DNA from: an uncultured Methanomicrobiales archaeon
Lineage (GTDB): Archaea; Halobacteriota; Methanomicrobia; Methanomicrobiales; Methanospirillaceae
Direction of reading: 5' to 3'
DNA: 64,000 nucleotides
Assembly: GCA_963758915.1 (NCBI GenBank)
Contig: CAVWXH010000010.1
Location: 96,001 to 160,000 of the forward strand
In this document: one piece after another, positions 16,703 to 63,249 of the stretch
Position numbering within the stretch: position 1 is the stretch's first letter
Layout of the letters: every line of letters starts with the position of its first letter
Program-made: the position numbers and the translations under genes
The notes under the pieces: model-generated
What the model saw: the letters and a program-made list of their open reading frames with translations, nothing else
Databases searched by the model: none
Told to the model about the DNA's origin: nothing

Positions 16703-16910
16703 CAGGTAATCAGACTCCGCTGAATCGTTATGGTACTCTCATTTTTACCGCTATTCAAGTACGTGTTAAATACCTGTACAGGATACATTCTTGATATAAC
16801 CCCCGGGAAAACAGGAAAATGGCCCGTGCAAATTATTATGACCCTGCATAAGGGGCTGCACGGGAGATGAAAATTCCCATGATCCGGAAAGAAAAAATCC
16901 CTGTTATGGA

Positions 16911-17573: not shown

Positions 17574-17649
17574 CGTCACTACTTCTTAGTGCCTGTGAAA
17601 AATAGTTATGTCCCTTCATTTTTCAGGGGTCTCCCCCTTTTGCAGTGGC

Positions 17650-18117: not shown

Positions 18118-18311
18118 CCGGTCCTCCGGTTATGAGCAGTGGTCTATCGCATTATTAATATCTTTTTATCTGGCTATATCACCAGCCTGTAACGGGATAA
18201 TTACCCGTCAGGCTGCACCTTAAAAGGGAGTACATAATTGGCATGACGGTAAAGGATGAAGAAGAGCGCGGGGATAAGCCTGGTACTTGTTACGTGTGAA
18301 GGGGTTTGTGA

Positions 18312-18812: not shown

Positions 18813-18925
18813 AAAAGAGCCTGAATAATGATCCCCTGGAATGTTTTCAACCGGAACGACCAGGACCAGAACCTATTAATGGGTGGCAGTAAACCGGATT
18901 AAATGAACAGGTTGGGAGAGTGAAT

Positions 18926-19594
18926 ATGAAGATTATAGGTCTAAACGGAAGCCCACACGGGAAAAACAGCCAGACGCTGCGCCTTGTGATGAAGGTACTC
19001 GAAGGGGCGAAGGACTCAGGTGCGGATATCGAATATACTGACCTCTGCGAACTTGAGATCAATTTCTGTACCGGATGTGGTGTATGCTATGCAAAAGGGG
19101 ATTGCATCAGTGCTGATGACTATCAGGAACTGCTTGAAAAGATCCTTGTTGCAGATGGGATCGTTCTCGGCTCACCGAATTACATCAATAACGTGACGGC
19201 CCAGGTCAAGGTAGTCCTTGACCGGATGGCAGACGTGATCCACTGCCAGATGCTTTCAGGGAAGTACGGTTGCTCAGTGTCGACGGCAGGCGGGTCCGGT
19301 GCAGAAGAAGTGGCAGCGTATCTCAACCGCTCACTTCAGCAGATGGGTGCTACGACCGTTGGCCTTGTCGGGGTGAATATCCTTGGCAATCCGGCAGCTA
19401 TTTCCAACCGGGAGAACGAGGCCTATAACCTTGGAACCGTGCTCGCAGATGCGATCATTAACCACGAGGAATACCCTGAGCAGGAGAAACTTCACCGGGA
19501 GCGGGCTGAATATATGAAAAACCTTGTCCTCATGAACAAGGACACCTGGACCCACGAGTACGAGTTCTGGAAAGAAACCGGGAAAATCAACTAA
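18926..19594 (+). CDS. Iron-sulfur flavoprotein / flavodoxin family
   Basis: GLNGSP, CxxCxxCx5C (CTGCGVCYAKGDC), GSPNY. Confidence 0.9.
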   Translation: MKIIGLNGSPHGKNSQTLRLVMKVLEGAKDSGADIEYTDLCELEINFCTGCGVCYAKGDCISADDYQELLEKILVADGIVLGSPNYINNVTAQVKVVLDRMADVIHCQMLSGKYGCSVSTAGGSGAEEVAAYLNRSLQQMGATTVGLVGVNILGNPAAISNRENEAYNLGTVLADAIINHEEYPEQEKLHRERAEYMKNLVLMNKDTWTHEYEFWKETGKIN

Positions 19595-48151: not shown

Positions 48152-48264
48152 GCTGCGGTGGCCTAGCTGGTTAGGGCGCCAGACTCATAGGGTTTTCGAG
48201 CAAATTCATTGGCGCCGTCATCTGAGACATCTGGAGGTCGCGGGTTCGGATCCCGTCCGCAGCA
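48152..48264 (+). tRNA. Elongator tRNA-Met(CAU) with ~39-nt intron at 37/38 (48190-48228)
   Basis: GCTGCGG/CCGCAGC acceptor, CCAGA-CTCATA | intron | A-TCTGG, GTTCGGATC. Confidence 0.92.
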
Positions 48265-48609
48265 TATACACGGCAAGTACGGAGCCCCCATTTTTTTACT
48301 GATTTTTGCAACCTTTTTTGCATGTCTGAAGTATTTCGGATAAAATCTGTGGCTGATATTGCATCGGCGCTGTTTTCATGGTGTCCAATATCGCTGATGT
48401 GGAAGCATTGGCGTTTTTATTTACGGGTGTTGTGCTTCTCGGAGGGGTCGCGGACCCCCCGGCCGCACGGGCCGCCGCCCCGATGTTGTCCCAGGATTAT
48501 GATCGCAAAAATAAATCTGGATATGAAAGATCGTTCGCACCACTGCCGAGGCCATCGGGCCTCGTCTCCGAGGTGCTCCCTGGTTTAGTGGTTGACCAGA
48601 TATAGGAGA

Positions 48610-49180
48610 CGGGCATCATGTTCGCTCCCTCGTTTCCTCACTCCACTTCGTTCCGTTCCGGGCCTCCTCCGCTCACTTCATGCCCTGGTTCTTCTGAATA
48701 TACCGGGGTGATACTGACGGCCAAGACTTCGTCGCGATGCTCCTCGTCATCGCCTGTTTCCTTCACGCTCCGGGACACATGGCTGATGCCATCGGTCCCG
48801 TTCGCTGTGTTCTGTTGAAGTGTAGACGCTCCGTGACTCCCTCGCTTCGCTCGGTCGGGCCGCTTGGCCCTTGATTATCTAAAATTAATATCGGCTGCTT
48901 ACCGTTAGCACTTGCAGCCTGTACGGAAAGGAGGGAGCACAGACCCGGTTGATACCGTGTCACCTCCGAGTGCTCCCACCGCCCTCTGATGAATCAGGAT
49001 ATGGTCTGGACAGGAAATGCAGACAGGGCGGGAAGGCAGCCCGGTTACGGACTGCATCAGCAGGCCGTCGGAGCTGTCGGGTGGGCGTGGTCAGGCAAAT
49101 GAGATCCCGGAACTACCACCCGTAGGGGTGGCGCTCGATGGCCGGGCCATCAGGACCGGACCGTGCGACGCCCCGCAGGG
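48610..49180. repeat. Long structured non-coding element, copy A (inverted relative to copy B)
   Basis: 48610-48839 is roughly 85-90% identical (by eye) to the reverse complement of 51788-52016; colinear motif blocks continue to 49180. Confidence 0.9.
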
Positions 49181-49281
49181 AAAAATTTGTCCTGGTCGAT
49201 AATCTGATAAGAAAAGGGAAGCAATAGATTAACCGACCGTAGCCGGTTAATATGCGTTTGTGGCACTTCGACCGGCTGCGG

Positions 49282-49476
49282 TTACTTGTTCCTGTTCTCC
49301 CTGATAAATTCCATAAAGTCCTCTTCACTGACCCGCCACTCGATGCCGATTTTTATCGCTCCCAGCCGCTTTTTTAAAATCAGTGTCCTGACTGTCTGGA
49401 CATGGAGATGCAGCATCGCAGCCACTTCCTCTGTCGTATAAAATTTATGAGGTGGGGGTTGAGCCACGTTAGCCAT
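49282..49476 (-). CDS. Excisionase-family (HTH_17) DNA-binding protein
   Basis: FYTTEEVAAMLHLHVQTVRTLI...AIKIGIEWRV. Confidence 0.88.
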   Translation of the reverse strand: MANVAQPPPHKFYTTEEVAAMLHLHVQTVRTLILKKRLGAIKIGIEWRVSEEDFMEFIRENRNK

Positions 49477-49482
49477 TAGTAC

Positions 49483-49923
49483 TCAGTCCTCCCCAGGAAG
49501 CATAACAGTTATGACCGGCTCGTAGTCATCGCCGGGTCCGCAGATTGCTTTGAGTTCTACGGTCTCGCTGCTCCTGTGGTGTATGATACCGGTTGCCCTG
49601 GCTCTCTTCTGCAGTAGTTCGAAGGCCACACGGAATATGATAACACTGCTGCCTCGTGATTTATTCGCCGCCATTCGCAACATCCAGAGCAGGTCCCAAA
49701 GTCTGCCGGTCAGGTCCTGGTCGGGCATCTCGGGAAGATACGAGGGTTCGATGTACTGATACCAGGCTGCCCGGGTGAGTGCGACCGGTACCGAGATCCC
49801 GGCCTGCCTGGTGAGGTCCCGGGGTGCTGCGATTAATTCGCCATCGTTCAGGGCATCGTCCCGGGTGTATCTGCTGATGATGTCCTCCTCGGTCCAGAAT
49901 GGAGAAGGGGTTGAGGTGGTCAT
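49483..49923 (-). CDS. DUF6573-like mobile-element protein
   Basis: ISRYTRDDALNDG, PVALTRAAW, GRLWDLL, GPGDD.EPVITVMLPGED. Confidence 0.75.
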   Translation of the reverse strand: MTTSTPSPFWTEEDIISRYTRDDALNDGELIAAPRDLTRQAGISVPVALTRAAWYQYIEPSYLPEMPDQDLTGRLWDLLWMLRMAANKSRGSSVIIFRVAFELLQKRARATGIIHHRSSETVELKAICGPGDDYEPVITVMLPGED

Positions 49924-50129
49924 ACCCGACCACCCCGGAGACGTGGTTTCCCGTTAGTAAAACCAGGCCGGATAATAATATCGTGAGGGGACACTTTCGA
50001 CCACATCCAGCCCATATTATGATTATGTGCATACACAGCAGCGAAATCAACCGCAGCACTATGATCGATGCACTCGGCGATGAGCTGAGGACCAACACCA
50101 CGATTGACAAAAATTTTGTATTCCATCAT
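49920..50129 (-). CDS. Hypothetical protein (69 aa)
   Basis: MMEYKIFVNRG...; starts in a TAATG overlap and ends in an ATGA overlap. Confidence 0.55.
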   Translation of the reverse strand: MMEYKIFVNRGVGPQLIAECIDHSAAVDFAAVYAHNHNMGWMWSKVSPHDIIIRPGFTNGKPRLRGGRV

Positions 50130-50462
50130 TACACCTCGGCGTGATGGCCACAGGCTCGGACAGTTGTATCCTGCGAGATAGTACACGGACCCAATCCGCT
50201 CAGTTTCACCCTGGTATTCGATGCCGATCATATGATGTTCAGGAGGGACTATTTCACCGCAGCTTTCGCACCGCTCCTCGTCATCGGGAATATCCCCTAA
50301 TACCTTTGAAATATTCCTGTTTTTCTGGGTGCAAAACTGGCAGATACCTTGTCCTTCTGAGTATATCCACGGGCAACGGGGGCATTCCTGATGTTCCCGC
50401 CGAAGTCGCAATGATGAAATATTCTTTTTAATCCGGGCAACCAGAAGGGAGAGGGAGGTCAT
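50129..50462 (-). pseudogene. Cys-rich Zn-finger protein with +1 frameshift at ~50153
   Basis: CPRC, CQFC, CESC; removing one base restores YNCPSCGHHAEV* with TAATG coupling. Confidence 0.6.
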
Positions 50463-50816
50463 ACCCTCGCCTCCTCTGCATGGTCCCGGTCCCATTGTTT
50501 AGAAAACTCTGCAATTGCCTGAGCCCTTGAACGGTTGGCCTCGACCACTTTCAGGAGATCTTCGAATTCTCCTGCACTCCTGCTACCGCATATCCGGCAG
50601 CGGAAACAGTGTTCGTAATATTCGTCCTCGATGATTTCGAGGTCCTCCAGCCTGCAGCACATTTCAGGCCACCCCGTATACTTTCGCGATTTCTTCGGCC
50701 TGACACCGCAGGTCCTGAGCTTCATAGCTCAGGAGATCGGATTGTTTCTGAAGATTGGCCGCTTCATCACGGAGGGAGGAGATCATTAATCCGGCGAATA
50801 CCGGGACCTTCTTCAT
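50459..50816 (-). pseudogene. Coiled-coil/Cys protein with +1 frameshift at ~50668
   Basis: MKKVPVF...KVYG joins PEMCCR...CRICG; 358 nt = 3n+1; ATGA overlaps at both ends. Confidence 0.55.
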
Positions 50817-51202
50817 GCTGACACCGCCAGAGGTGCTGCCTGTTCGGATACCTGGGTGATAGGTTCCCATGTGATTGTGGAAATGTTCGCAAACTTCCGT
50901 GAGCCTGCGATCGCTGCCCGGATATGTGAGAGCGGGGAGATATATCGCCTGCCGTGTATGTCGTACATGACCGCCCGGCCGGACGCGTTGATCCATGCCT
51001 GCCCTGCTTCTGTTGGTTCGCCGGACCCGGACCAGACCGGGGTCATGTCCCAGACGGTAACCCGTGCCAGGTCCCCGGTGAGCCGGGAAACATCGGAGCG
51101 GGCTATCGCTGCCTGTATGATTTTCACATCTATTCTCAACATGCCGCCGGACAGTTTCACGGTCCCGACGTGCTGAATTTTGGCAAAAAGCGTTTGTGGC
51201 AC
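50813..51202 (-). CDS. Hypothetical mobile-element protein
   Basis: 129 aa; first gene of the coupled operon; GQAWINASGRAV. Confidence 0.6.
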   Translation of the reverse strand: MPQTLFAKIQHVGTVKLSGGMLRIDVKIIQAAIARSDVSRLTGDLARVTVWDMTPVWSGSGEPTEAGQAWINASGRAVMYDIHGRRYISPLSHIRAAIAGSRKFANISTITWEPITQVSEQAAPLAVSA

Positions 51203-51320
51203 TTCATTTCACCACGTATAATATTAGGCGGGTGATGTTATAAGACAGCGCCATGCACGGTGTGAAAGTGAATCGCATTATATCGCAGCGTATAGTGTTG
51301 TGATATAAAACATGCGGTCG

Positions 51321-52016
51321 CCCTTCGGGAAGGCCCACTGCCGGCCTCCGGCCGTCTCCGAGGGCCTTCCCTCCGGGTATGTTGTCCTGGGATCTCTGTC
51401 GCTCCTCAACACCGCGACGGTCTGCCGACCGTAACCGGGTGTTGTCGTCGCTGGTTGTTGTTGTCCTGGTGCCGGGTGAAATATTACAGGACCAAAACAC
51501 GCTGTCGCTCCTCGGCACCTCGACCTCGCTCCGCTCGGTAACCGGGTGCCTCGTCGCTGGGTCTGGTGCTCCCCAACCCAACCCTATCATGTTTTGTCGG
51601 GCCGTCGAAGGTGGCACGGTCTCAGCCGGGCCTCGGCCTCCACAAGTAGCTCGCAAGCGTTAGCGGAAAGCGGGCGATTTTATATTCAATCCAGGCCAAG
51701 CGGCCCGAGTGAACGCCGCTAATGGGGTGCGAAGGTAACGAGACGTTCTCAAACGGCTCGTCCGAGCCCCACATGCGTCGCGTGAACGAGTCACCGAGCG
51801 TCTGCACTTGCACGGTAATCAGCGAACGGGACCGATGGCATCAGCCATGTGTCCCGGAGCGTGAGTTTCAGGCGATGACGAGGAGCACCGCGAGGAAGTC
51901 TTTGCCGTCAGTGTCACCCCGGAACAATCATGAAAAACCAGGGCATGAAGTGAGCGGAGGAGGCCCGGAACGGAACGCAGTGGAGTGAGGACACGAGGGA
52001 GCGAATATTATGCCCG
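51321..52016. repeat. Long structured non-coding element, copy B
   Basis: Inverted homolog of 48610-49180; contains an internal 106-bp duplication (51396/51502). Confidence 0.9.
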
Positions 52017-52061
52017 GTAAAATAAGGAGTATATTGTGAATTAGTTCAACTCATTTGTAAA

Positions 52062-52400
52062 TCAGAGCAGTTTTGTTTCTTCCGTGGGTTTAGGTACCTT
52101 GACCACCAGCACCCGGAACACGACCTCACTCTCATTCAGCCACCGGTGTGGGATCCGTGCAGGACTCTCCACCAGCATATCTTTGCCAACGGTATTTCGT
52201 TCGTCACCGATCTCAACAATCCCTGTGCCTTCGAGCACATAGAAGAAGACATCAACCGGAGTAGAATGCTTTTTCAGCGATTCCCCGGGCTGAAGTGTAA
52301 TTACCACGGCTATTGCATGTGTTGAGTCGTATATCTTTCGTGCGTCTACATGGTGGGGATTGGGTCCCGATACCACCTTTGCAACTTCAGTAATTTTCAT
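52062..52400 (-). CDS. Cupin domain protein
   Basis: LQPGESLKKH, FYVLEGTG, PARIPH. Confidence 0.9.
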   Translation of the reverse strand: MKITEVAKVVSGPNPHHVDARKIYDSTHAIAVVITLQPGESLKKHSTPVDVFFYVLEGTGIVEIGDERNTVGKDMLVESPARIPHRWLNESEVVFRVLVVKVPKPTEETKLL

Positions 52401-52402
52401 AG

Positions 52403-53092
52403 TTAATTCACCTTTTCTATTGGAATATACGGAATTAATGTAAGTAATTCCGATTTCAGCGTATCGATACCAATTCGTTCCATGAACCGGGCGGTCCGTT
52501 CATGCTTGTTTGCATGGCTCCGGTAGTATTCTGAAAGACGTTGTGCACAATCCACCGCCTCACTGGCAGTAAGGTCCCACGCAATAAGATCTCCAAAACG
52601 TGGTCGTGTGCCACCGTTACCACCAAAGAATACCATCCAGCCTCTTGTAGTGCCGATGATCCCGATATCCCGGGTATGACTTTCACTGCAACAGCGGGGA
52701 CAGCCGGAAACACCGATCTTGATCTTGGCCGGGAAGGACTGGTCTTTGAACTGGTTTTCAATAGTCCTGGCAAGTCCGATTGAGTCTTGTTTCCCGTATT
52801 TGCACATATCGGTCCCGATACAGGCATGGACAAACTTGACACATGGAGAGGTCTCTGGTTTTGCGAGCGGGCCAAGGTCAGCAAATACCCTTGAAACATC
52901 TTCGGGCTGAATCCCGGCAAGTAGCACCCTCAGGCCGGATGTGACCTTCAGGACGGGCACATGGTACTTTCGCCCGACTCTGGCAATTGTTTCGAGCTGT
53001 TCTGGAGTTATAATACCGGCAGGTATCCGGGTCGTGACCGCATAGGTCTTCCCGTCCCGCTGAAGAATTGCTCCTTCTGTAGAATTTGTCAT
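52403..53092 (-). CDS. Small siroheme-[4Fe-4S] sulfite/nitrite reductase-like protein
   Basis: CIGTDMC...KIKIGVSGCPRCC (Cx5C...Cx3C), RDIG, FGGNGG. Confidence 0.88.
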   Translation of the reverse strand: MTNSTEGAILQRDGKTYAVTTRIPAGIITPEQLETIARVGRKYHVPVLKVTSGLRVLLAGIQPEDVSRVFADLGPLAKPETSPCVKFVHACIGTDMCKYGKQDSIGLARTIENQFKDQSFPAKIKIGVSGCPRCCSESHTRDIGIIGTTRGWMVFFGGNGGTRPRFGDLIAWDLTASEAVDCAQRLSEYYRSHANKHERTARFMERIGIDTLKSELLTLIPYIPIEKVN

Positions 53093-53184
53093 TCTTTTTC
53101 ACGACTCCGTTGATTTACTCTTTTTCATATCTTTTTCGGGTCATGTTCCTCGCTACACTGATATTCTCCCCTTCCTGTGTTATT

Positions 53185-53964
53185 TCATGTCGCATGTCCG
53201 ATCATCTCTGAAAACAACCTGCTTTGAACACAAGTGATAAAAGGCAACGTAATAATGACTGCCATGCGGTTCCCGTCCTGATTGTAGATGAGCATCGATT
53301 CCTGGTCATCGGCTATGAGGATACACTCAAGTCTGAAGATAGCACCCTCGCGATTGATAGGCACGGAAAATACTTTTTCGAAAATATTCTCCCCGAAAAA
53401 GTCCCTGACTTGCCCGGCTTCAAAATACCTGATGCTGTCATGTATGAAAACCCCTTCTGCACCACCTTTAGGGAAAAGGATTCTTATCTCCCGGTCATTT
53501 GCGATTGAGAGGATCGGACCCTGGAATTTTTCAAGGGTCTCCGCATCGAAACAGAGAACAATGAGTGAACTGGTAACTCCTTCAACCAGCCTCTCAATGT
53601 TCCGCTGGATAGTCCAGTCACTATGAACGTACCAGATCGGAGAATAATTCTGCCGGGCATCTACCGACAACGCCTCAAGAGCCTTTACACTTTCAAACGC
53701 CGCTGTTTCGAGATCTTTTTTTAAGAAGGCTACAACTATGTCCGGGCGGACTGCCTGGTACATCAGCGGGCTTCCCTGTCGTATCTCAATGAATCCCTTC
53801 GCATCAAGTGCATTAAGGACATCATATACCCGTGGACGTGGGACTCCGCTGACTTCATGGATACTGCGGACATTTGCTTCACCGAGTCCGACAAGGGCCA
53901 CGTAAATTTTTGCCTCGTATTCTTTGAGTCCGAGCTGGACAAGGTTTTCAATTGCTTTATCCAT
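53185..53964 (-). CDS. TrmB family transcriptional regulator
   Basis: LGLKEYEAKIYVAL, SGVPRPRVYDVLNALDAKGFI. Confidence 0.92.
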   Translation of the reverse strand: MDKAIENLVQLGLKEYEAKIYVALVGLGEANVRSIHEVSGVPRPRVYDVLNALDAKGFIEIRQGSPLMYQAVRPDIVVAFLKKDLETAAFESVKALEALSVDARQNYSPIWYVHSDWTIQRNIERLVEGVTSSLIVLCFDAETLEKFQGPILSIANDREIRILFPKGGAEGVFIHDSIRYFEAGQVRDFFGENIFEKVFSVPINREGAIFRLECILIADDQESMLIYNQDGNRMAVIITLPFITCVQSRLFSEMIGHAT

Positions 53965-54018
53965 TTGTTACTCTGTAAGGGACAACATAATTAAATAGTT
54001 ATCTGTCAAGCATAGTGT

Positions 54019-54454
54019 ATGACACAACTATCCAGCGAACCTGAGAATATCGCAGTTGTCCGCAAATTTTTTGAGGTTGGCCCATCGAAAGGTGACCTTG
54101 CCGCAGCCGACGCAATTCTGGCACCCTGAATTTTCCCTGCATACCCCGTTGCCGACCCCGGGACCCGGGATCGAGGCGATGAATAACGTCATTATCACCT
54201 GCCGGGCTGCATTTCACGATCTTCATGTGACTATTGATGACATTATGGCTGATGGGGATAAGGTTACAGCCCGTTTCACGGCACGTGGCATGCACAAAGG
54301 GGAATTTATGGGCCTTCCTCCCACGGGAAAGGCAATCGCCATGACTGGCATTGAAATTTTCCGGGTGAAGGACGGGAAGATTACGGAGCTGTGGGGTGAA
54401 GCGAATGTAATGGGACTGATGCAGCAGCTGGGTATTTTACCGGTCCCGGCATAA
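54019..54454 (+). pseudogene. SnoaL-like ester cyclase with +1 frameshift at ~54120
   Basis: ENIAVVRKFF...ADAIL joins HPEF...AFHDL...GDKVTAR...GEFMGLPPTGK. Confidence 0.8.
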
Positions 54455-54481
54455 AGCGGAATAAACGAAGGGTGAAATTTC

Positions 54482-55252
54482 ATGGTTTTTTCACAGATTC
54501 CAAAAGCAATAGGGTTCATCTACGCCCTGGTAATAATTGGGGTTATTGCCTACCTCTGGTATTCCGGACGATGGCGAAAGAAGATCGCCTGGCTGCTTCT
54601 TGTTATTTCAGTTGCCCTGGGTTTTCTCATATTTTCACCGGTATTACCCTGGCAGTTCCAGCAGCTTGTATTAGGTGATGTGCAGGGACTGGGAGGGCCC
54701 CTGATTGTCGGTGTTATCGGGCTCGCTATTTTTTTATTGCTGACCTTCATTTTTGGAAGGTTCATCTGTGGATATATCTGCCCGGTCGGCACCATACAGG
54801 AGATCGCCTCCCATGCACCGGTCCCCAAAGTCAGCCTGCGTCCGAAGAAGATGTTCATGGGAATAAGAGCGGTGTTCTTTGTTCTGTTTCTCGTGATGGC
54901 ATTCGTATTTTCAGCCTCACTGCTGGCCTTGTTTGGCATACAGGATTTCTTTTACCTGTCAGTTACTGCAGGGACACTCGTGTTTATTATCATATTGTTG
55001 CTGTCTATGACCCTGTATCGCCCGTTTTGCCGCCTTATTTGTCCGTATGGGGTGCTATTATCGCTCGGTGCGTGGAAGTCAGCGTTCAAAATACACCGGT
55101 CCAGTGCATGTATCGAATGTAAAAAATGTGAAAAAGCATGCCCCACAGATGAAGCAAAACGTGATGATGGAAAAGCGGAATGTTATCTCTGTGGAAGATG
55201 CACGGATGTCTGTCCGGTTACCGGGGCCCTGGAATATAAGCGTGGATGGTGA
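54482..55252 (+). CDS. Membrane 4Fe-4S protein (NapH/CcoG-like polyferredoxin)
   Basis: GRFICGYICPVG, RPFCRLICPYG, two CxxCxxCxxxCP motifs. Confidence 0.9.
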   Translation: MVFSQIPKAIGFIYALVIIGVIAYLWYSGRWRKKIAWLLLVISVALGFLIFSPVLPWQFQQLVLGDVQGLGGPLIVGVIGLAIFLLLTFIFGRFICGYICPVGTIQEIASHAPVPKVSLRPKKMFMGIRAVFFVLFLVMAFVFSASLLALFGIQDFFYLSVTAGTLVFIIILLLSMTLYRPFCRLICPYGVLLSLGAWKSAFKIHRSSACIECKKCEKACPTDEAKRDDGKAECYLCGRCTDVCPVTGALEYKRGW

Positions 55253-55301
55253 ATGAAGCAAATGAGAGATGAATTAAAAATATTCTCGCATGGAGGATTG
55301 C

Positions 55302-55667
55302 ATGGTAGAATTTAAACTGGAAAACCCGGATAAGCACGACAAAAAACGGGAGGAACTCGGTGCAAAAGTCCTCGATCTCAAAGAACTGGTCTCCTACCAG
55401 GACGGGACCGTTGCGAGCCGGATGATCGTCAACAACAAGGCCGGGAGTATCACGATCTTTTCATTTGACGAGAACGAGGGACTTTCCGAGCATACAGCAC
55501 CCTATGACGCTGTGGTTACGATCCTTGATGGTGAGTGTGAAGTATGGGTTGCCGGCCAGACCCTCCAGATGAAAGCGGGGCAGACTATTATCTTTCCGGC
55601 AAACGCACCTCACGCACTCAGTGCCATCACAAAATTCAAGATGACACTGACTATGATCCGGGGGTAA
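55302..55667 (+). CDS. Cupin domain protein
   Basis: FSFDENEGLSEHTAP, PANAPHAL. Confidence 0.9.
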   Translation: MVEFKLENPDKHDKKREELGAKVLDLKELVSYQDGTVASRMIVNNKAGSITIFSFDENEGLSEHTAPYDAVVTILDGECEVWVAGQTLQMKAGQTIIFPANAPHALSAITKFKMTLTMIRG

Positions 55668-55671
55668 CCAG

Positions 55672-55963
55672 ATGGGCGGGAATGAGCAGGACGGCTACTA
55701 TTGCACAATCTGTGGAGGTATCCCTCCGGATAAAATTAACATCAGGCAGATTCTTGTTGACGGTAAAGAGACCGGGATCGATAAACTGGATTGGATTATC
55801 GCAGAGGTCAGGAAACTGAACCTTTCCGATGACACAGTTATCACCGAAGAGCTCTTAAAACGAACGAAGGCGCTCAACTACGTTCCCACCAAAAAGACAA
55901 ATGATTACGGCGATGGCATTGCTGATGGAATATAAAAAATCCGGGGTTGAAACCGGTGCTTGA
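55672..55963 (+). pseudogene. Small CxxC protein with probable +1 frameshift at ~55909
   Basis: YYCTICGG...NYVP; removing one G gives ...YAMALLMEYKK. Confidence 0.6.
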
Positions 55964-56192
55964 CCATTGTCCCGGTTCTGCGAACCTCAGGACCCCAACA
56001 CTTTCAATAAAAAAGTGCCCGGAATGCGGAGAGGAAATTGAAATTTTCTCAAATGACATCAAGGTGGCATGCAGCAACTGCGGCTTTGTTATCTATAACG
56101 ATATTGTATCGTGTGTCCAGTGGTGCAAGTATGCGAAAGAATGCGTAGGTGAGGAGATGTACCGGAAACTGGTTGAGAAGAAAGAGGGATGA
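55956..56192 (+). CDS. Small Cys-rich Zn-ribbon/Fe-S protein
   Basis: HCPG, CPECG, CSNCG, CVQWCKYAKECVG. Confidence 0.8.
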   Translation: MLDHCPGSANLRTPTLSIKKCPECGEEIEIFSNDIKVACSNCGFVIYNDIVSCVQWCKYAKECVGEEMYRKLVEKKEG

Positions 56193-56306
56193 TGGGAAGC
56201 TCCCGTATCGGGCATCAGTTCCCTGACCATATTTCAACACCGCCCAATTAATGACCAGACGCTCTGCACAGAAATTTGAATGAGATAAAATGAAACGTGA
56301 AAAGCC

Positions 56307-56859
56307 ATGCCACCCCATTGCGATACGAGAGATGGCCCCGTTGTTAAGGCAGCGATTAAAGCACTCGAAACGGGGAATTTGAATTATGTACCTGATCTGG
56401 ATCCCGAAAGAGTCCGAGGAAGAACTCGAAGGGATCTTCGAGAAAACACAGCGGGCCAGAAAATCCGGAAAGGATGCACAGGAAGTTGCCGATGACTGGT
56501 TCTTCGAGAATACCATCCGGCTCCACCGGGCCGGTGAGGGAGCCGCGTATACCGGAATGAAACCCGCTGGCCTCAGCGAAGGTCCAGTTGTGCCGAAAGC
56601 AGAGAACGCAATTGAGATCGAAGATCCCAAAGAATCGATTGATTTTATCTTAAAGACTGTTGAAGATGATCTGACCCATCGCTTCCATCATGTTATGGCA
56701 AAGAAAAAGTATGACGTGAACGATGTTGCTGCCGGCAGGGAATACATAGAGGCGTTTATCGGCTGGGTCGTCTATTCCCATCATCTCTGGCAGTCGGTGA
56801 CAACTGCAGCCGGGCATGGCGAGAAGCATGAGGAGAAAGCCGGGTGCGGTCACCACTGA
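56307..56859 (+). pseudogene. DUF6448-like protein with +1 frameshift at ~56390
   Basis: HCDTRDGPVV...NYV joins LIWIP...FFENTIRLHRAGEGA; His-rich tail. Confidence 0.75.
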
Positions 56860-57061
56860 TCACTACCTGCCCTCGCTCTTTTTCATAGGGACGCGATGGA
56901 GTATCAGGAAGAATGATGTCTCACATGGATTTCATTGTCAGAATAGTGATTTCTGAACACAACTGTTTTAGGTCATTGGACTCGAAGAAACGGTGAAACA
57001 CCGGTGATTTTTAACAACCAAATTCTCCCCGGTATGCTTTGCCATTATCAGGATTTGCAAT

Positions 57062-57421
57062 TTACAGCACGCAAACCTTGCAGTCCTGTTTACCACAGGG
57101 AATATTGTCAATCTTCCATTTCAACGCCCACTGCTTGATAATCCGGATCACGTCCACAATTTCAAGACCGCTTTCCGTCAGGGTGTATTCTGTCCTTACC
57201 GGGAATGCGGTTGCGTCCACATTCCTGGTGAGAATTCCTTCTTCTTCAAGTTCTTTGAGCCGTTCCGAGAGAATTTTTGGTGTAATACCGTCAAGAGCAT
57301 CCCGGAGCTCGGAAAACCTGCGGGTATACCCCTTGCCTTTGTAGAGCTCAAGGATGATCAGCAATGTCCATTTCTTTGTCAGATATTTCACGGTCTGGTT
57401 GACCGTGCACGCATCCTGCAT
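57062..57421 (-). CDS. HxlR family winged-helix regulator with Cys residues
   Basis: KKWTLLII, RFSEL, ITPKILSERLKELEEEG, EYTLT; Cys5 and C-terminal CxxxxCxxC. Confidence 0.92.
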   Translation of the reverse strand: MQDACTVNQTVKYLTKKWTLLIILELYKGKGYTRRFSELRDALDGITPKILSERLKELEEEGILTRNVDATAFPVRTEYTLTESGLEIVDVIRIIKQWALKWKIDNIPCGKQDCKVCVL

Positions 57422-57499
57422 GATATGTATCTGGATACTCTCGGTTATTTATACCTTGTAAATTTTGATATCTAATATAAAAAAGAAATCAATGGAGTT
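57365..57499. promoter_or_regulatory. Divergent promoter region, copy 1, with TATA and imperfect TTGATA-N5-TATCAA operator (57465-57481)
   Basis: Homologous to 58304-58439; TATTTATA at ~57446. Confidence 0.65.
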
Positions 57500-57509
57500 A
57501 GTGAAACAC

Positions 57510-58169
57510 ATGACTAAAACAAACATTCCCGAAAAAGGAGCGATTGTCCAGCGCGACATGGAGACGTACCTGATTCATCCCCACATCCCCGGCGGTTTTG
57601 TCGAACCGAAATTGCTGAGGAAGATTGCGGACGTAGCTGAGAAGTATGGGGCGAAATACCTGAAGCTGACCGGGGCGCAGCGGATCGCGATCATCGGCCT
57701 GCAGGAAAAGGACCTTGACAATGTCTGGGCTGAGTTCGATGACCGGAAAAAGGCCATCGGCCTCACTATCCGATCCATCCAGATGTGCCCCGGCACACGG
57801 TCGTGCAAGAAAGCCAAGCAGGACAGCCCGGGCCTCGGATTTGCGTTGGACACTGAATACTACGGGAAGCCGGCACCTGCAAAGTTCAAGATTGGCATCT
57901 CGGGTTGCGACAACTGCTGCGCCGATTCGTGGATGAAGGATCTCGGCTTTTTCGGCACCGAGCAGGGATTCACCGCAGTTGCCGGCGGTAAGGGCGGCGG
58001 CACGGCACGGGTAGGTCAGGTCATCGCGACCGGCCTGACCGAGGCCCAGGCAATTGCCCTAGCCGACCGGGTGATCACGTTCTACCGTACAAACGGGAAA
58101 GGACCGGAACGCCTGGGTGGCACCATCGACAGGGTCGGGTTCGACACATTTATGAAAGCAGTGAAGTAA
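57510..58169 (+). CDS. Small siroheme-[4Fe-4S] sulfite/nitrite reductase-like protein (second paralog)
   Basis: CPGTRSC...KFKIGISGCDNCC, KDLG, AGGKGG. Confidence 0.88.
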   Translation: MTKTNIPEKGAIVQRDMETYLIHPHIPGGFVEPKLLRKIADVAEKYGAKYLKLTGAQRIAIIGLQEKDLDNVWAEFDDRKKAIGLTIRSIQMCPGTRSCKKAKQDSPGLGFALDTEYYGKPAPAKFKIGISGCDNCCADSWMKDLGFFGTEQGFTAVAGGKGGGTARVGQVIATGLTEAQAIALADRVITFYRTNGKGPERLGGTIDRVGFDTFMKAVK

Positions 58170-58303
58170 TACGATTGCCGGGTGACCCGGCAACCATATC
58201 TGAAAATTGTTTGACGATTGGTGAACAGGATTCTATAATAGGAATCCTTTTACTGACAATTTAGCGCAAGTAACCATACTTGTTATTTTTTGAGGAGAAT
58301 GTG

Positions 58304-58439
58304 TGTCCATTTCTTTGTCAGATATTTCACGGTCTGGTCAACCATGCACGCATCCTGCACGGTATGTATTTGGAAACTCCCGAGTATTTATAATCAGGTA
58401 TACAATTGATATTTTGTATCAAAAAGAAATAATGGAGTT
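58304..58439. promoter_or_regulatory. Duplicated promoter region, copy 2 (hxlR 5' remnant plus perfect palindrome TTGATA-N5-TATCAA at 58406-58422), upstream of hcp
   Basis: Direct repeat of 57365-57499. Confidence 0.7.
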
Positions 58440-58441
58440 CG

Positions 58442-60064
58442 ATGATGTTCTGCTACCAATGCGAAGAGACCGTTAAGGGGACGGGATGTACGGTTAAAGG
58501 TGTCTGCGGTAAGGAAGACGAGATCGCTGCATACCAGGATGTGCTTATCTACGTCTGCAAGGGGATCTCGGTCAGGAACCTTGCGGCAATGGATAAGGGT
58601 AAAGGAGATCCTACGGTGGGATTGTTCATCGCTGACGCCCTTTTTTCCACGCTGACCAATGTAAATTTTGATAAAGCACGATTCTTTGACATGATTAACC
58701 ATGCTGTTGCGCTCAGGGATACCCTCCCGTCAACTGGTAATGCTGAACCGGATGCCTGTACCTGGAAACCGAAAAGTGACAGCGATATCCTGGAGAAGGC
58801 AAAAACCGTAGGGATTCTGGCAACATCCAATGAAGATGTCCGCTCGCTTCGCTCTACCCTGCTCTTCGGGCTTAAGGGTATTGCAGCCTATTACACCCAC
58901 GCTGCGGTGCTGGGTAAAACAGATGATTCTATCACAGCATTTCTCCAGAAAGGGCTTACATCCACCCTGAACGATCTGACGGTCCCCGACATGATTGCTC
59001 TCGTAATGGAATGCGGGGAAAACGGGGTAAAGGTCCTTGCCCTTCTCGATTCAGCCAATACCTCCGCATATGGAAATCCGCAGATCACGAGCGTTAAAAC
59101 AACAGCAGGATCACGCCCGGGGATCCTGATCACCGGTCATGACTTAAAAGACCTTGAGATGCTGCTTGAACAGTCAAAAGACGCAGGTGTTGACGTATAC
59201 ACCCATGGCGAGATGCTTCCGGCACATGCGTATCCTGCGTTCAAAAAATACACTCACCTGTATGGCAATTACGGAAGTTCGTGGTGGCACCAGAAGGAGG
59301 AGTTCGAGCAGTTCAACGGCCCGGTCCTGTTCACGACCAACTGCCTTGTTCCACCGAAGGATACCTACAAGGACCGTGTCTTTACAACCGGACTTGTCGG
59401 GTTTTCAGACACCAAACACATCACCGCGTCCAAAGATGGGAACAAGGACTTCTCATCGATTATTACGTACGCAAAGACCTGCCAGCCACCCAAAGCCCTC
59501 CCGGGAAGCGGGAATGACCTCATCACCGGTTGTGCCCATGGTGCGGTACTTGCGATTGCAGACAAGGTTGTTGCTGCGGTAAAGAGCGGGGATATCAAAC
59601 GGTTCATCGTCATGGCCGGATGCGATGGCAGGCAAAAAGAACGGGAATATTACACGAATTTTGCCCAGGCCCTACCAAAGGATACGGTGATTCTCACAGC
59701 AGGGTGCGCTAAATACCGGTACAACTCTCTCAATCTCGGTACTATTGGCGGGATTCCAAGAGTACTAGATGCAGGCCAGTGCAATGACTGCTACTCCCTG
59801 GTCGTGATTGCACAGGCTCTTGCCAAGGCATTCGGTGTCGGTATCAACGAGCTGCCGGTCTCGTACAATATCGCGTGGTACGAACAGAAGGCGGTCCTGG
59901 TCCTGCTTTCATTGTTGTCACTCGGCGTAAAAGATATCACGCTTGGTCCAAAACTTCCGGCGTTTGTCTCCCCCACGGTGCTCGATGTGCTCGTGAAAAA
60001 TTTCGATCTCAAACCCAACACGACTGTCGAGGCAGACCTTGCCCGGATGGTACCAGCCAAGTAA
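58442..60064 (+). CDS. hcp: Hybrid cluster protein (hydroxylamine/NO reductase)
   Basis: [44 protein letters not shown]. Confidence 0.97.
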
Positions 60065-60100
60065 ATTAAAACGAATGGTCCTCATACTAAAGGAAGAGCA

Positions 60101-60736
60101 ATGAACGGTAAACAGATCGCAGGTGAATGCTCAGCACTCCGGTCAAAGAAGACCAAAGGTGAGCTTGGCGAAGCCATTGCGGCCATCGTCCTGCAGTATT
60201 CACCCCGCGACCTTCAGCAGATGCAATGGAATTTTTCGGGTGCAGTCCAGGACTATAACCCTGAATACCGGAAAAGACTGGAGGAGGCCACCACCGGTCA
60301 CCTTAACGGGACGTACCAGGCACTCCGGCGAATGCATGAGTTGAAGAATTTTAGTACGATGAGGGAACACCTTGCAACGGATGCCGGCGATTACTGGAAG
60401 ATGGTCTCGGTGCAGTGTTCATCAGGAGAGGAGGAACAGGTCCGGCTGAGGTTCTTAAAACTCCTGCTTGCAGGCTTCTGCATGTTTGTGCAGGGACTTC
60501 CCGGCCACCCGGTAGGGATGCCGTTTCCCGGGGGGAACACGGTTGAGCTCATAGACGGGGTGTATTACTGCCCGGTCCGGGAGAAGGCAAACGATGTCGA
60601 TTCCGCCCTCTGCCCGTTCTGCCCGGCCCTGCAGACCCTGGAGATCGGGTATCTCAAACCGCCGGTGAATGCAAGCAAGCACCGGAAGCAGGAGTTTATC
60701 AATAACTGCTACGACCACCATAATTTCAACGGGTAA
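60101..60736 (+). CDS. DUF2115 (UPF0305) family protein
   Basis: HPVGMPFPGG...YYCPVR...LCPFCPA. Confidence 0.88.
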   Translation: MNGKQIAGECSALRSKKTKGELGEAIAAIVLQYSPRDLQQMQWNFSGAVQDYNPEYRKRLEEATTGHLNGTYQALRRMHELKNFSTMREHLATDAGDYWKMVSVQCSSGEEEQVRLRFLKLLLAGFCMFVQGLPGHPVGMPFPGGNTVELIDGVYYCPVREKANDVDSALCPFCPALQTLEIGYLKPPVNASKHRKQEFINNCYDHHNFNG

Positions 60737-60832
60737 CATGTTCCGCTTTTTTTCTTATTTTTCCCTGGCTGGGCACCGAAATAATTGCAGCAAATTGATA
60801 TTGGGATTATCGGGCCAGATTTATGATAATCA

Positions 60833-60943
60833 TCCTGCCCACGGCTCCATGATTTCGCCTGGCGAAATTCTTTCTCTTGACAGGAATGTGAGCGATAGAA
60901 GACCGGAACGGGATGAAGTGGAGCGAGGACACGAGGGAGCGAA
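60833..60943 (+). repeat. Composite repeat: 42-bp hairpin repeat (shared with 61638-61679) plus 56-bp copy of the outer end of the long element (cf. 51950-52005)
   Basis: GCTCCATGATTTCGCCNGGCGAAATTCTTTC; GTGGAGNGAGGACACGAGGGAGCGAA. Confidence 0.85.
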
Positions 60944-61031
60944 CTTGAAGCCGGACTGATATATCCACTCACTTTCATCCCGCACGCCCCTTGCACTTAT
61001 CAACCTGAACCGGTAACCCATAGCACCTATC

Positions 61032-61631
61032 ATGGATCTTGAATGGCCAGGCGATATCTGCATCCCGGAACGGACAATAACCGTAATCATTGGCCCCTCC
61101 AGTATCCTCGAAGCGGGACTTAACAGTTGTAGCGGCACAATGCGACGTTATCCATTCCTCTATGTTTGCAGCAATTATTCCGGCGTACTCCCGAACCTGC
61201 ACAGGACATCGTTTGAGTTTTCTGTCCGACGAGGATTCACATCCGACCAGATGGCCACAATCATCAACGAATGTGATGCAACCTACCTCATTATCGAGCA
61301 CGACCCTTCGCTCTATGAAGCTGATACGAAATTGATTCCGAGTGTCATTAACCGGTTGAAAACGTTTGCCCGTAACGAAGGCACGGTGGTTGTGTATTCC
61401 CGGTATCTCGACAGATTTATGCGATCTCTTCTCCGGGCATCAGGCAGGGCATATCTCTATGCAGACTGGGCAAATGTAATCAGAAATAGCCAGTTAAGGA
61501 AACAGCAAAAAAATGGGTCGGCCAAGAGAATTGTATCCAGGCAGGTCCGACTTGATCAGGTTAGTAGACCCGAAGTATCACAGAGGGATCTTGAGAGTGG
61601 ACTAGCCGACCTCGTAGTAACAGATGAATGA
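61032..61631 (+). CDS. Degenerate RecA/RadA-like protein (no Walker A), similar to proteins of archaeal PolB2 operons
   Basis: VRRGFTSDQMATII...IIEHDPSLY motif, recalled from this family and not search-verified. Confidence 0.5.
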   Translation: MDLEWPGDICIPERTITVIIGPSSILEAGLNSCSGTMRRYPFLYVCSNYSGVLPNLHRTSFEFSVRRGFTSDQMATIINECDATYLIIEHDPSLYEADTKLIPSVINRLKTFARNEGTVVVYSRYLDRFMRSLLRASGRAYLYADWANVIRNSQLRKQQKNGSAKRIVSRQVRLDQVSRPEVSQRDLESGLADLVVTDE

Positions 61632-61637
61632 TGGTCC

Positions 61638-61679
61638 TCCTGCCCTCCGCTCCATGATTTCGCCGGGCGAAATTCTTTC
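61638..61679 (+). repeat. Second copy of the 42-bp hairpin repeat
   Basis: TCCTGCCCTCCGCTCCATGATTTCGCCGGGCGAAATTCTTTC. Confidence 0.85.
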
Positions 61680-61806
61680 GCGAAGCCGAAAGGGAGCGGA
61701 CAGGAGGCACCGGTGGTGTGGCCCCGCCCTTTAGGCTTGGTAGGGCGGGGAGTTGGGGGTGGGTCGGTCGCAGGGGCGAAGGGCTTCCTGAATAAAAGGG
61801 CGACAG

Positions 61807-62106: not shown

Positions 62107-63249
62107 ATGGGACGGAAAGCTGGAGAATTTGTGCGACAGGATCGGGGGTATGATGCCTTCATCCCCAATCCTTTACCGCCGGATATTGAATATGATGATG
62201 AATTGCGTCTTCTTCTCTCGAAGGCCGATGCAGCCCTGGCCCGCCTTGACGGGGTAACTGAAGTCCTCCCGAATCCCGATATCTTTGTTGCAATGTACGT
62301 GAAGAAAGAAGCGTTGCTATCCGCCCAGATTGAAGGGACGCAGGTCTCGCTTCAGGGGGTGCTGGAATTCGAAGCAAATCTCAAACCAAAGGAGGATATC
62401 CGGGATATCAGGGAAGTTATCAATTACATACGAGCCATGAATTATGGCGTCGAGCATCTTCGGAATGGTGACCTGGACCTTGCGTTAATCAACGAGTCCC
62501 ATAAGACGCTGATTACCGGGACGAGGGGTTCTGATAAAAATCCCGGCAGATACAAGGACAAACAGAATTTTCTTGGAACCCCGGGAGGATCTATCTTCCA
62601 GGCATCATTTATCCCGCCGCCACCGGCAAAAATTGAACAGCTGATGGGGGAACTTGAAAAATTCATCAAAGAAAAAGACAAGTTGCCGGTACTCATCAAA
62701 ATTGCACTGATTCATGCACAGTTTGAAACGATCCACCCCTACCTTGATGGTAACGGGAGGATGGGACGGCTTCTTATCACGTACTATCTCTATTGGACGA
62801 AATCGCTATCGAGGCCCCTGCTCTACCTGAGTTTCTATCTCAAGAAATACAAACCGGAATATGCTGAACACCTTAACAGAATACGGTTTCATGATGACTG
62901 GGAGGCCTGGTTGAAATTTTTCTTAAAGGGCGTTATTGAAGTATCAGAGAACGCCATTCAATCGGCAAGGGAAATTATCGCGTTGAAGGATAGTTCGATT
63001 AAGAAACTGATCGAAAATAAGGTAGGTGGAATGAATGCGATCAGGTTACTTGATCTCTTATTCGACAATCCGACTGTTTCAATCAGAGAAGTGGCGGATG
63101 AACTGAAGATCAGCCCGGTCGCTGCAAACAAACTGGTCAACAAAATGGTGGGCCTGGGTATCCTGCAGGAAATTACCGGAAAAGAACGATACCAGATGTT
63201 TGCATTTGTTGATTTTATCAGGATTATTGAAAAGGGGACACGGGTGTAA
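62107..63249 (+). CDS. Fic family protein (class II, C-terminal HTH)
   Basis: HPYLDGNGRMGR catalytic motif; N-terminal SAQIEG inhibitory motif. Confidence 0.95.
   Translation: MGRKAGEFVRQDRGYDAFIPNPLPPDIEYDDELRLLLSKADAALARLDGVTEVLPNPDIFVAMYVKKEALLSAQIEGTQVSLQGVLEFEANLKPKEDIRDIREVINYIRAMNYGVEHLRNGDLDLALINESHKTLITGTRGSDKNPGRYKDKQNFLGTPGGSIFQASFIPPPPAKIEQLMGELEKFIKEKDKLPVLIKIALIHAQFETIHPYLDGNGRMGRLLITYYLYWTKSLSRPLLYLSFYLKKYKPEYAEHLNRIRFHDDWEAWLKFFLKGVIEVSENAIQSAREIIALKDSSIKKLIENKVGGMNAIRLLDLLFDNPTVSIREVADELKISPVAANKLVNKMVGLGILQEITGKERYQMFAFVDFIRIIEKGTRV

Follow-up and report, generated by a model that had tools for sequence, protein, structure and literature searches.

Features of the locus

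The 64,000 nt stretch analysed here (the window) comprises positions 96,001 to 160,000 of the forward strand of contig CAVWXH010000010.1, which belongs to assembly GCA_963758915.1 of an uncultured archaeon of the Methanomicrobiales (Methanospirillaceae). At window positions 48610–52016 two long inverted repeats, referred to as the left arm (48610–49180) and the right arm (51321–52016), enclose a small operon. Both arms are versions, in inverted orientation to each other, of one non-coding cis-element that is modular and rich in hairpins; selection preserves the pairing of these hairpins and not their sequence. The arms with their operon form the core module of an integrative island inserted at a tRNA gene. 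In what follows G000 is the window's own genome, C10 the contig that contains the window, and C1, C2, C4, C5, C6 and C9 are other contigs of G000; G-numbers denote sampled genomes of the family and L-numbers extracted loci that hold copies or relatives of the element. The sequenced relatives are mostly metagenome bins, and counts over related genomes are not independent.

All six open reading frames (ORFs) of the module are on the reverse strand. The hallmark core gene, gp1 (129 aa, 50813–51202), has homologues across the family, found in 13 of 15 compared elements at 40–74 % identity. A variable part of the operon contains two small ORFs (50459–50996; 88 aa and up to 110 aa, the latter probably shorter) with no family matches, and the gene for a 191 aa zinc-ribbon protein (49920–50495) that has a weak DZR match only and homologues confined to close relatives. 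The other two genes, each kept in all 15 compared elements, encode a DUF6573 protein (146 aa, 49483–49923; Pfam, 2.4e-23) and a 64 aa protein with an excisionase-type helix–turn–helix (HTH; 49282–49476) that matches Pfam HTH_17 (4.7e-15), TIGR01764 'excise' (1.1e-11) and PHROG excisionase families. Genes in the middle of the operon vary between elements, and two larger versions include an extra 424 aa ATPase of the AAA_23/SMC_N type downstream of the HTH gene (L234:4622-5896 and L228:5861-7132). No transposase or recombinase family was found when the six ORFs were compared with Pfam, PHROGs, NCBIfam and PADLOC, and the structured arms and three-gene core (gp1, DUF6573 and HTH) carry no functional name in Rfam or in these protein-family libraries.

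Homology and modular structure of the arms

The outer parts of the arms, 48610–48839 and the reverse complement of 51788–52016, are 88.7 % identical over 231 alignment columns (BLAST, E-value about 4e-79 to 4e-81), in agreement with the initial annotation of this DNA, which had described the arms as homologous and 85–90 % identical over their outer 230 bp or so. A repeat finder resolves this similarity into three inverted segments that adjoin one another, 48610–48694/51932–52016 (85 nt, 94 %), 48695–48756/51869–51930 (62 nt, 89 %) and 48763–48839/51788–51864 (77 nt, 90 %). The inner parts are weakly alike as wholes (48855–48969 against 51708–51605, 69 %, E-value 4.6e-4); the colinear blocks that the same annotation had noted here between length-variable hairpins are visible in the pairwise alignment, and comparison with other copies identifies them as homologous modules. 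The two window arms differ by insertions and deletions of 1, 2, 5, 6, 12 and 64 nt.

The anatomy of the arms was worked out from 23 arm copies of G000 and its relatives, to which further copies were added later, and the order of modules from outside to inside is A, B, an optional 64 nt insertion, C and purine-rich hairpin arrays. In the left arm, all parts of which are given for the forward strand, the pyrimidine-rich terminal module A (48610–48756, 147 nt) has a sharp outer end, CGGGCATCATGTTCGCTCCCTCG, and a purine fraction of 0.24–0.36 in its first 100 nt. Comparison of copies places the termini of module A in more than 25 of them within 1–3 nt of one base, and many arm copies end near position 147. 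Module B (48757–48839) forms the hairpin GGGAC-ac-ATGGC-TGAT-GCCAT-cg-GTCCC, predicted in foldings of both strands of ten copies, and its TGAT loop is kept on five different inner stems, those of other arms, read by eye, being GGCAAC../..GTTGCC, GAAC/GTTC, GTCC/GGAC and TGTC/GACA. In the alignment, module C (48855–48895) begins with a conserved CGGGCCGCTTGGCC, after which comes an AT-rich, TATA-like patch. The remaining part (48896–49180, purine fraction 0.56–0.66) is a purine-rich series of hairpins in the minimum free energy (MFE) fold, namely GGGAGCAC../..GTGCTCCC, GGCAGC-CCGGTTACGG..-GCTGTC, CACCC-GTAG-GGGTG and GATGGCC-G-GGCCATC, and has orthologous blocks in C1, L012 and L013 at 82–92 % identity.

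On the reverse strand, the right arm repeats modules B and A in inverted form at 51788–52016, as seen with the repeat finder, the alignment and BLAST. Of the two window arms it alone has the hairpin-bearing 64 nt insertion, at 51716–51779 (within a few nt, as counted from the alignment gap), which is also present in the C1R, L028, L038 and L029 arms. Its inner part (51321–51715) contains two tandem module units, 51397–51451 and 51503–51557, in a 106 nt direct repeat, each of the form GCGACGA-[stem, CCGGTTAC.. loop, stem]-GAGGAGCGACA, and its inner end carries a GGGAAGGCCC../..GGGCCTTCCC hairpin. A 16 nt direct repeat flanking the window operon, GCGTTTGTGGCACTTC, is not conserved in the other copies.

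Other arms, which we call type 2, lack most of module B and all of module C, so that A is joined almost directly to the arrays. Arm length ranges from about 150 to more than 700 nt with varying module content, so that the RNA of some 600–700 nt that was initially suggested is not a fixed unit. On the strand that runs from the outer to the inner end the purine fraction rises from 0.22–0.36 at the terminus to 0.56–0.70 inside, also in the arms of elements whose proteins are only 40–50 % identical to those of the window. In type-1 arms an AT-rich box lies 45–110 nt before this switch in purine skew, a TATA-like example being found near the switch in arms winL, winR, C1R, L199, L216 and L224; type-2 arms have no such box.

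When the three outward frames of ten arm copies are compared, no intact frame is common to them, as had been claimed for the two window copies, and an origin of the arms by decay of protein-coding sequence was rejected as extremely improbable. A purine-rich outward frame of about 38 codons, which could be taken to favour such an origin, is open in seven or eight of the ten copies, and C1R has an ORF of 88 codons; a frame of this length is however expected, because the purine-rich strand is poor in T and has few stop codons by composition. The upstream, N-terminal part of this frame moreover sits in the 64 nt insertion that is missing from half of the arms, indels of 1, 2 and 64 nt between copies disrupt the frames, and what the arms of distant elements have in common is hairpin modules, not ORFs. 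Nor do the arms match a known RNA family of Rfam, as had also been supposed from the sequence alone: Rfam 15 at its gathering score gives no arm match in the window or in three loci with other copies, and a scan of 48300–52300 at E-values up to 10 returns four unrelated matches far under threshold (E-values 0.14–9.6).

Selection on hairpin structure

The hairpin module occurs in a short and a long form, and the short form permits the pairing to be counted. Its alignment holds 25 distinct instances from 20 loci, obtained from 37 regular-expression matches after removal of 12 in which the stem was absent or which were overlapping second hairpins. The eight-pair helix is paired in 95 % of its 200 cells, and in six of the eight pairs both sides have changed (52 cells). 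Covariation scores 0.663, as against 0.272 ± 0.027 in shuffled alignments, none of 500 of which reaches the observed value, and sliding the 3′ partner by 1–3 columns reduces pairing to 14–44 %. Instances were selected with a one-strand folding-energy filter, which favours pairing, but the double changes cannot be attributed to the filter, because such a filter cannot create them. The helix contains a fixed internal mismatch (T.T in 12 instances, G.G in 12, T.G in 1), with GA on both sides of it in 21 of 25; wobble pairs show a weak strand preference (7 G.U against 3 A.C), and 17 of the 25 loops are GNA triloops.

The stems of the long form, like those of the module B hairpin, were read by eye, the MAFFT alignment of the long form being out of register for the counting of pairs. 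In the arm units of the window and its relatives the outer stem of the long form is represented by no fewer than eight sequences (GGCACC, CAACACC, GACACC, GACGCC, GGCGCC, AACGCC, GTTCCTGGT and GCCCCC), always with the complementary partner; in three of these versions a G.T wobble falls on the same strand. The window's own two units already differ, with stems CAACACC/GGTGTTG and GGCACC/GGTGCC, the other six versions being those of relatives. The proposal that stems are kept while their sequence changes is thus borne out by comparison of repeat units within the window and by comparison with relatives, and the covariation among the 25 module instances, with a score above that of every shuffle, substantiates the selection on hairpin structure that had been deduced from it. 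In the arm hairpins it is the pairing, and not the sequence, that selection maintains.

Distribution in related genomes

G000 contains a second complete copy of the element on C1 and solo terminal modules on C4, on C5 and in the window itself (60888–60952). A BLAST search of 201 family genomes with the left arm gave matches in 17, among them 10 of the 12 of the same genus. Wider searches, over 151 family genomes, used gp1 and a covariance model, R1, built from the short-form module GCGACGA-hairpin-GAGGAGCG. R1 matches 57 of these genomes and 11 of 19 genera, typically as two opposite-strand matches 2.7–4 kb apart, and gp1 is present in 62; gp1 lies between the R1 pair in the nine cases checked by coordinates (G033, G050, G139, G133, G119, G146, G130, G015 and G118). 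Outside the window's genus R1 is also found in 31 of the 32 genomes that have gp1 at an E-value of 1e-20 or better, and 25 further genomes have R1 without a strong gp1 match.

Species-representative genomes searched with DUF6573 as bait yielded loci, often several per genome, titled Methanomicrobiales, Methanoregula, Methanolinea and Methanoregulaceae, and one from a Methanospirillum bin. Of 43 archaeal-labelled loci, 29 have inverted repeats of 50–540 bp (72–100 % identical) around the DUF6573 gene, and contig ends truncate many of the remaining 14; of six bacterial-labelled loci none has such repeats around the gene. Among ten further loci from the R1 and gp1 genomes all have inverted repeats, of about 200–500 bp. 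We note that L214, on a contig labelled Syntrophorhabdus, contains the archaeal-type hairpin module twice together with a DUF6573 gene, and is possibly a mis-binned archaeal contig. A metagenome scan with a 17-mer pattern gave at least 119 loci, and among the matches listed three are real relatives by BLAST.

Bacterial DUF6573 genes are found in 238 plasmid records, 137 of them typed as conjugative, within runs of small genes; none was found in phage records, and no literature on DUF6573 was found. The linked genes point to plasmid-like biology. A structure model of the DUF6573 protein (predicted local distance difference test score, pLDDT, 84.1) has no Foldseek match at an E-value of 0.001 or better, and the same is true of gp1, for which there is also no match by sequence in the Protein Data Bank (PDB) and no relative among the viral contigs of IMG/VR. 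The AlphaFold2 (AF2) model of gp1 (pLDDT 84.6) gives weak fold matches (Z 4.3–6.2), the top one, 6jjs (Z 6.2), being to an unrelated protein. Four of the best 15 are Whirly-type single-stranded DNA (ssDNA) or RNA binders or look-alikes of these (3cm1, Z 5.7; 2gia, 5.5; 1l3a, 4.6; 3n1h, 4.3), and this modelled resemblance may serve as a lead and no more. The ESM Atlas offered no usable lead for gp1 or for the 191 aa protein.

A tRNA-integrating island

Upstream of the left arm, at a distance of 345 nt, is a tRNA gene with an intron (48152–48264, forward strand; Rfam tRNA, 55.1 bits; anticodon CAT by eye) that was missed by ARAGORN. The C1 copy lies downstream of a tRNA-Leu gene, the C4 solo module of a tRNA-Thr gene and the L015 copy of another tRNA gene. 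The last 14 nt of the window's tRNA gene plus one (48251–48265) make up the left attachment repeat (attL) of the island, a 15-mer, TCCCGTCCGCAGCAT, that occurs at exactly two sites in G000, here and at C5:19574, in the same orientation. A broken tyrosine-integrase gene, of which a 177 aa fragment matches PF00589 at 34.5 bits (cut-off 27.1), has its 5′ end 534 nt from the C5 site. Homology of the window with G070 and G084 ends exactly at the 3′ end of the tRNA (48265), and in G070 about 870 bp after the tRNA comes a homologue of C5:20468-21078, the sequence just beyond the C5 repeat; G070, which is 83 % complete, has no arm match, and its tRNA locus is an empty site. The repeat, although short, carries weight because it is unique in the genome, lies beside an integrase and coincides with the break in synteny with G070. 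The window holds the attL end of an island, with attR and the broken integrase on C5.

Two near-complete genomes, G130 and G146, contain the whole island, of 31–46 kb, on one contig. The order is tRNA-Arg, about 290 nt, arm, core operon, inverted arm, 25–38 kb of cargo, third arm, 334 nt, integrase, 64 nt and repeat. The third arm is 93 % identical to the first and oriented like it, and lies 334 nt beyond the stop of the integrase gene; in G130 this gene (411 aa; PF00589, 1.7e-28) is on the opposite strand and starts 64 nt from attR. The tRNA-end repeat is 16 nt long in G130 (E-value 3e-4), where it recurs 46 kb away, and 15 nt in G146 (1e-3), 31 kb away. From this full layout we conclude that the window pair is therefore the attL-proximal core module of a tRNA-integrating island. 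The assignment of the arms to a mobile element by the initial annotation was correct, although they are not the isolated new system that it envisaged but repeated cis-elements inside a larger tyrosine-integrase island, and the arm pair is not a free-standing transposon. To judge from the map, arms 1 and 3 would flank the integrase–attP region in an excised circle, and arms 2 and 3 would bracket the cargo.

The cargo of G130 includes MFS and FtsX transporters, prismane and a BREX-like set (PglZ, methylase and DUF6079); in L287/L288 (G130:C1:1763939-1779350) the latter comprises PglZ, a DNA methylase, a 1250 aa DUF6079 protein and a large AAA protein. On C5, positions 14524–19040 hold remains of the integrase end of the G000 island, with a 540 aa ORF, a 293 aa ORF and the split integrase (177 and 123 aa), and a solo arm module at C5:23228-23374, 3.6 kb outside the att repeat, is perhaps a trace of an earlier tandem insertion.

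Rearrangements at the arms

The arms are REARRANGEMENT joints (recombination joints), where the core module occurs in either orientation in different copies and where cargo between two arms is acquired or dropped. Judged by the common flank on the tRNA side, the C1 copy and the window copy have their interiors in opposite orientations, and G130, G146 and G139 have the C1 orientation. Between L189 and L202, which come from two assemblies, the outer flanks are the same (85 % and 71 % identical) and the whole repeat-bounded unit is flipped. The suggestion that the pair could invert the operon holds to the extent that both orientations exist in different, paralogous copies, but the three orthologous tRNA-Arg loci share a single orientation. 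Neither the ORFs of the segment nor those in the 10 kb or so to its right include an invertase.

Loss or gain of cargo is seen beside the right arm, where 8.9 kb (52017–60887) lie between two arm copies in direct orientation, the second being a solo remnant, on the reverse strand, of the terminal 65 nt of module A (60888–60952, 83 % identical to the arm terminus). The L187 genome (91 % identical over 7.2 kb) lacks 52017–60887, and its right arm is joined directly to the sequence that in the window comes after the remnant (after 60954). By Pfam this segment, probably island cargo, is a redox-gene block with two cupins, two sulfite-reductase-like genes, TrmB, ferredoxin, prismane, DUF2115 and DUF6448, and its cupin/sulfite-reductase end has a second copy, 96–98 % identical, on C6 (2953–3455) and a 73 % identical copy on C2.

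The arm termini are sharp and often abut one of two conserved types of flank through a variable spacer of 12–18 nt that differs even at the orthologous L187 site. The class 1 flank, between the tRNA gene and the left arm (48393–48609, forward strand), carries a hairpin, GAGGCC-ATCG-GGCCTC, at about 48545–48580 and matches C1:52481-52693, next to the second copy of the element, at about 81 % identity. It abuts arm termini in other genomes also, again parted from them by the 12–18 variable nt, and is homologous in direct orientation to the innermost block of the right arm (51337–51372). The class 2 flank belongs to a separate short repeat family, of which 61631–61779 is a copy (99 % identical to C4:5302-5449 and 87 % to C9:187501-187611); it is non-coding, and the possibility that it is the start of a gene was rejected, since a stop follows after eight codons.

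Possible functions of the arms

The arms bracket the core operon (gp1, DUF6573 and HTH) at the attL end of Methanoregulaceae-type islands and are sites of rearrangement, and we propose that their hairpins act as folded ssDNA; the explanation as a whole we regard as evenly poised between right and wrong. That the hairpins act as folded ssDNA is a tentative element of it, which by itself we place somewhat short of an even chance. The region would be unwound or single-stranded during excision, replication or transfer of the island, each strand would then show one arm in its 'sense' fold, and the folds could act strand-specifically as points of entry, either for priming or for a recombinase, and might be bound by the island's own small proteins (gp1 and HTH). 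Such a step would explain the upkeep of the arms as an inverted pair, because each strand carries one 'sense' copy. Besides the inverted pair, the features that favour folded DNA are the fixed mismatch, the otherwise plasmid-borne nature of DUF6573, the GNA triloops in 17 of 25 modules and, as a lead, the weak Whirly-type fold matches of gp1. Two articles (PMC13037366 and PMC3201870) describe GNA triloops as a motif of very stable DNA mini-hairpins, and the first, a 2026 review, reports such mini-hairpins at the ssDNA priming sites of phages G4, St-1 and alpha3 and at RSF1010 ssiA.

A number of observations weigh against this proposal. Perfect-stem GNA hairpins are enriched about 3.5-fold in the arms (about 1.1 against 0.32 per kb per strand) but are equally frequent on both strands (13 and 11), the R1 module points inward in some subfamilies and outward in others, and in type-1 arms the mid-arm switch of the purine strand near the AT-rich box fits divergent transcription at least as well. 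Protein-family scans found no Rep, relaxase or primase among the module ORFs, and the fold matches of gp1 fall below the best Z of 7–8 given by the background of the tool. Relative to shuffled sequences, the inner arms on one strand or the other have folding z-scores of –2.0, –2.0, –2.1 and –1.0, the right arm as a whole has one of –1.0, and although the whole-arm MFE structure pairs the pyrimidine-rich terminus with purine-rich linkers at long range its z-score is only –1.0; these values are modest, and the case for structure therefore rests on covariation and not on stability. As regards the island, C10 and C5 are unjoined in the assembly, so that the two att sites of G000 are on different contigs, and both orientations of the core have been seen between paralogous copies only, the three orthologous loci sharing one.

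Alternatively, the arms could be genes for structured non-coding RNAs (ncRNAs), with an internal AT-rich promoter firing both ways to give two purine-rich RNAs, one outward (the reverse complement of B and A, with the sharp terminus as its end) and one inward (the hairpin array), which would regulate or scaffold island proteins. We consider this possible, if on the unlikely side. The switch of the purine-rich strand within each arm, kept in divergent elements, and the TATA-like box near it in the six arms named above are as expected of such genes, as are the preponderance of G.U over A.C pairs and the position of the arms downstream of, and co-oriented with, tRNA genes in four own or related loci. 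The mismatches and GA flanks of the module resemble the U.U and G.G mismatches and tandem GA flanks that are frequent in RNA. Contigs related to the arms are present in one metatranscriptome library, although contigs cannot show transcription; in that run, 5 % of the sampled words were found and the contigs (85–99 % identical, with partial arms and operon) give no reading of strand, ends or true transcription. On the other hand, type-2 arms are without the AT-rich box, no promoter is conserved at a constant spacing on the outer side of the termini, the arm ends lack an oligo-T terminator, and no Rfam family matches; the wide variation in module content and in length, from 150 to more than 700 nt, would be unusual for one RNA family, and GNA triloops are, according to PMC3201870, more typical of DNA hairpins.

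That the arms instead act as duplex DNA, as arrays of arm-type sites for integrase, excisionase or another binder with hairpins as a by-product of palindromic sites, seems to us unlikely. An excisionase-type HTH protein is encoded in the module, an arm copy adjoins the integrase gene near the att sites, and the linear motifs GCGACGA, GAGGAGCG, CCGGTTAC and TGAT flank or cap the stems, but the stems change wholly and yet pair (at least eight versions of one stem; six of eight pairs changed on both sides), whereas sites of one protein family would keep their sequence. The same-base mismatch in 24 of 25 instances would also make the half-sites unequal in duplex DNA, and the strand composition is strongly asymmetric. 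Slightly less probable again is that the 3.4 kb unit is a transposon with long terminal inverted repeats, inserted in either orientation at a preferred target beside the conserved flanks. Its sharp termini in more than 25 copies, its several copies per genome, the solo ends and the two orientations between the same flanks in L189 and L202 would suit this, but there is no transposase in the six ORFs or among the core genes, and in G130, G146 and G139 the unit occupies a fixed place inside the integrase island. Nor is there a consistent target-site duplication: the score of an element's own flanks exceeds 95 % of cross-pairs in 1 of 14 elements (C1), and L228, the youngest pair, with repeats 100 % identical, has no duplication. 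A casposon was likewise rejected, there being no Cas1 in the element; Cas1 genes elsewhere in these genomes are uninformative, because they occur in 13 of 13 genomes of the genus, with or without arms.

The arms might constitute a new class of folded-nucleic-acid signal, in which arrays of covarying hairpins with fixed mismatches and GNA loops would be read as single strands and would border the backbone of a widespread family of archaeal islands. A machinery with no recognizable recombinase in the module, for which gp1 and DUF6573 are candidates, would use them to flip the core and swap cargo. They might also be a new large family of structured RNA in about 40 % of the sampled genomes; this we advance as a possibility about which we are more doubtful than confident.

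Relationship to known systems

Islands that integrate at tRNA genes with a tyrosine integrase and an excisionase, following lambda-type logic, are well known, and elements lacking an integrase can accrete at an att site shared with them. The present island is of this known kind in its tRNA target, tyrosine integrase and Xis-like HTH gene, in having each border marked by a direct repeat of the tRNA 3′ end and the integrase beside one of them, and in its variable cargo with a BREX-like set; it differs in having a repeat-bounded core module and three copies of a long hairpin-rich element. We know of no island family with these two features, and the structured arms and three-gene core are the new part. 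No description of either was found in the literature searched, which is not proof of novelty, and the part available of a general survey of insertion sequences has nothing on the arm element.

Invertible segments are represented by the G segment of phage Mu and the C segment of phage P1, the latter with repeats of about 0.6 kb and crossover sites at their outer ends. The arm-bounded unit is similar as a 2.5–4 kb segment with long inverted repeats, sharp outer ends and both orientations relative to conserved flanks (in paralogous copies), but has no serine invertase in or beside it, and its repeats are non-coding and structured. Integron attC sites are folded single-strand recombination sites in which structure and not sequence is kept and unpaired bases set the strand; the arms share with them conservation of structure and not sequence, a fixed stem mismatch and the delimitation of cargo by sites, but there is no integron integrase, the arms are far longer and their hairpins have conserved linear flanks. 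GOLLD, ROOL and HEARO/omega RNAs resemble the arms in size range and in their tie to mobile DNA, although no Rfam family gives even a weak score to the arms. RSF1010 ssiA and ssiB lie on opposite strands. The phage G4 origin, the RSF1010 ssiA/ssiB sites, plasmid single-strand origins (sso) and F-plasmid Frpo are comparable to the arms in having hairpins with GNA-type mini-hairpin loops, whose shape is important (PMC13037366), on both strands as an inverted pair; the arms are 4–15 times longer than such signals, have many hairpins, are archaeal and have no linked primase, Rep or relaxase.

The mobile elements of methanogens are poorly known, and the integrative-island family defined here is present in a large share of Methanoregulaceae-type genomes. 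Its three-gene core and covarying non-coding element provide a handle for the annotation of islands with defence and metabolic cargo, and the arms, which mark rearrangement breakpoints, should be useful in reading fragmented metagenome assemblies. Folded-DNA or RNA signals in DNA mobility have so far been documented mainly in bacteria, and the arms are a concrete candidate for such a signal in archaea.

Other features

Just past the solo arm remnant, positions 62107–63249 encode a Fic/DOC family protein with a C-terminal HTH. On C1, a gene for the large subunit of DNA polymerase II (DP2) lies just upstream of the tRNA-Leu gene that precedes the second copy of the element (L009:3650-7516, corresponding to G000 C1:47649-51515), and has a weak intein-domain match (30.1 bits, under the cut-off of 35.8 bits). 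The window also contains an archaeal signal recognition particle (SRP) RNA at 1166–1477 (184 bits).

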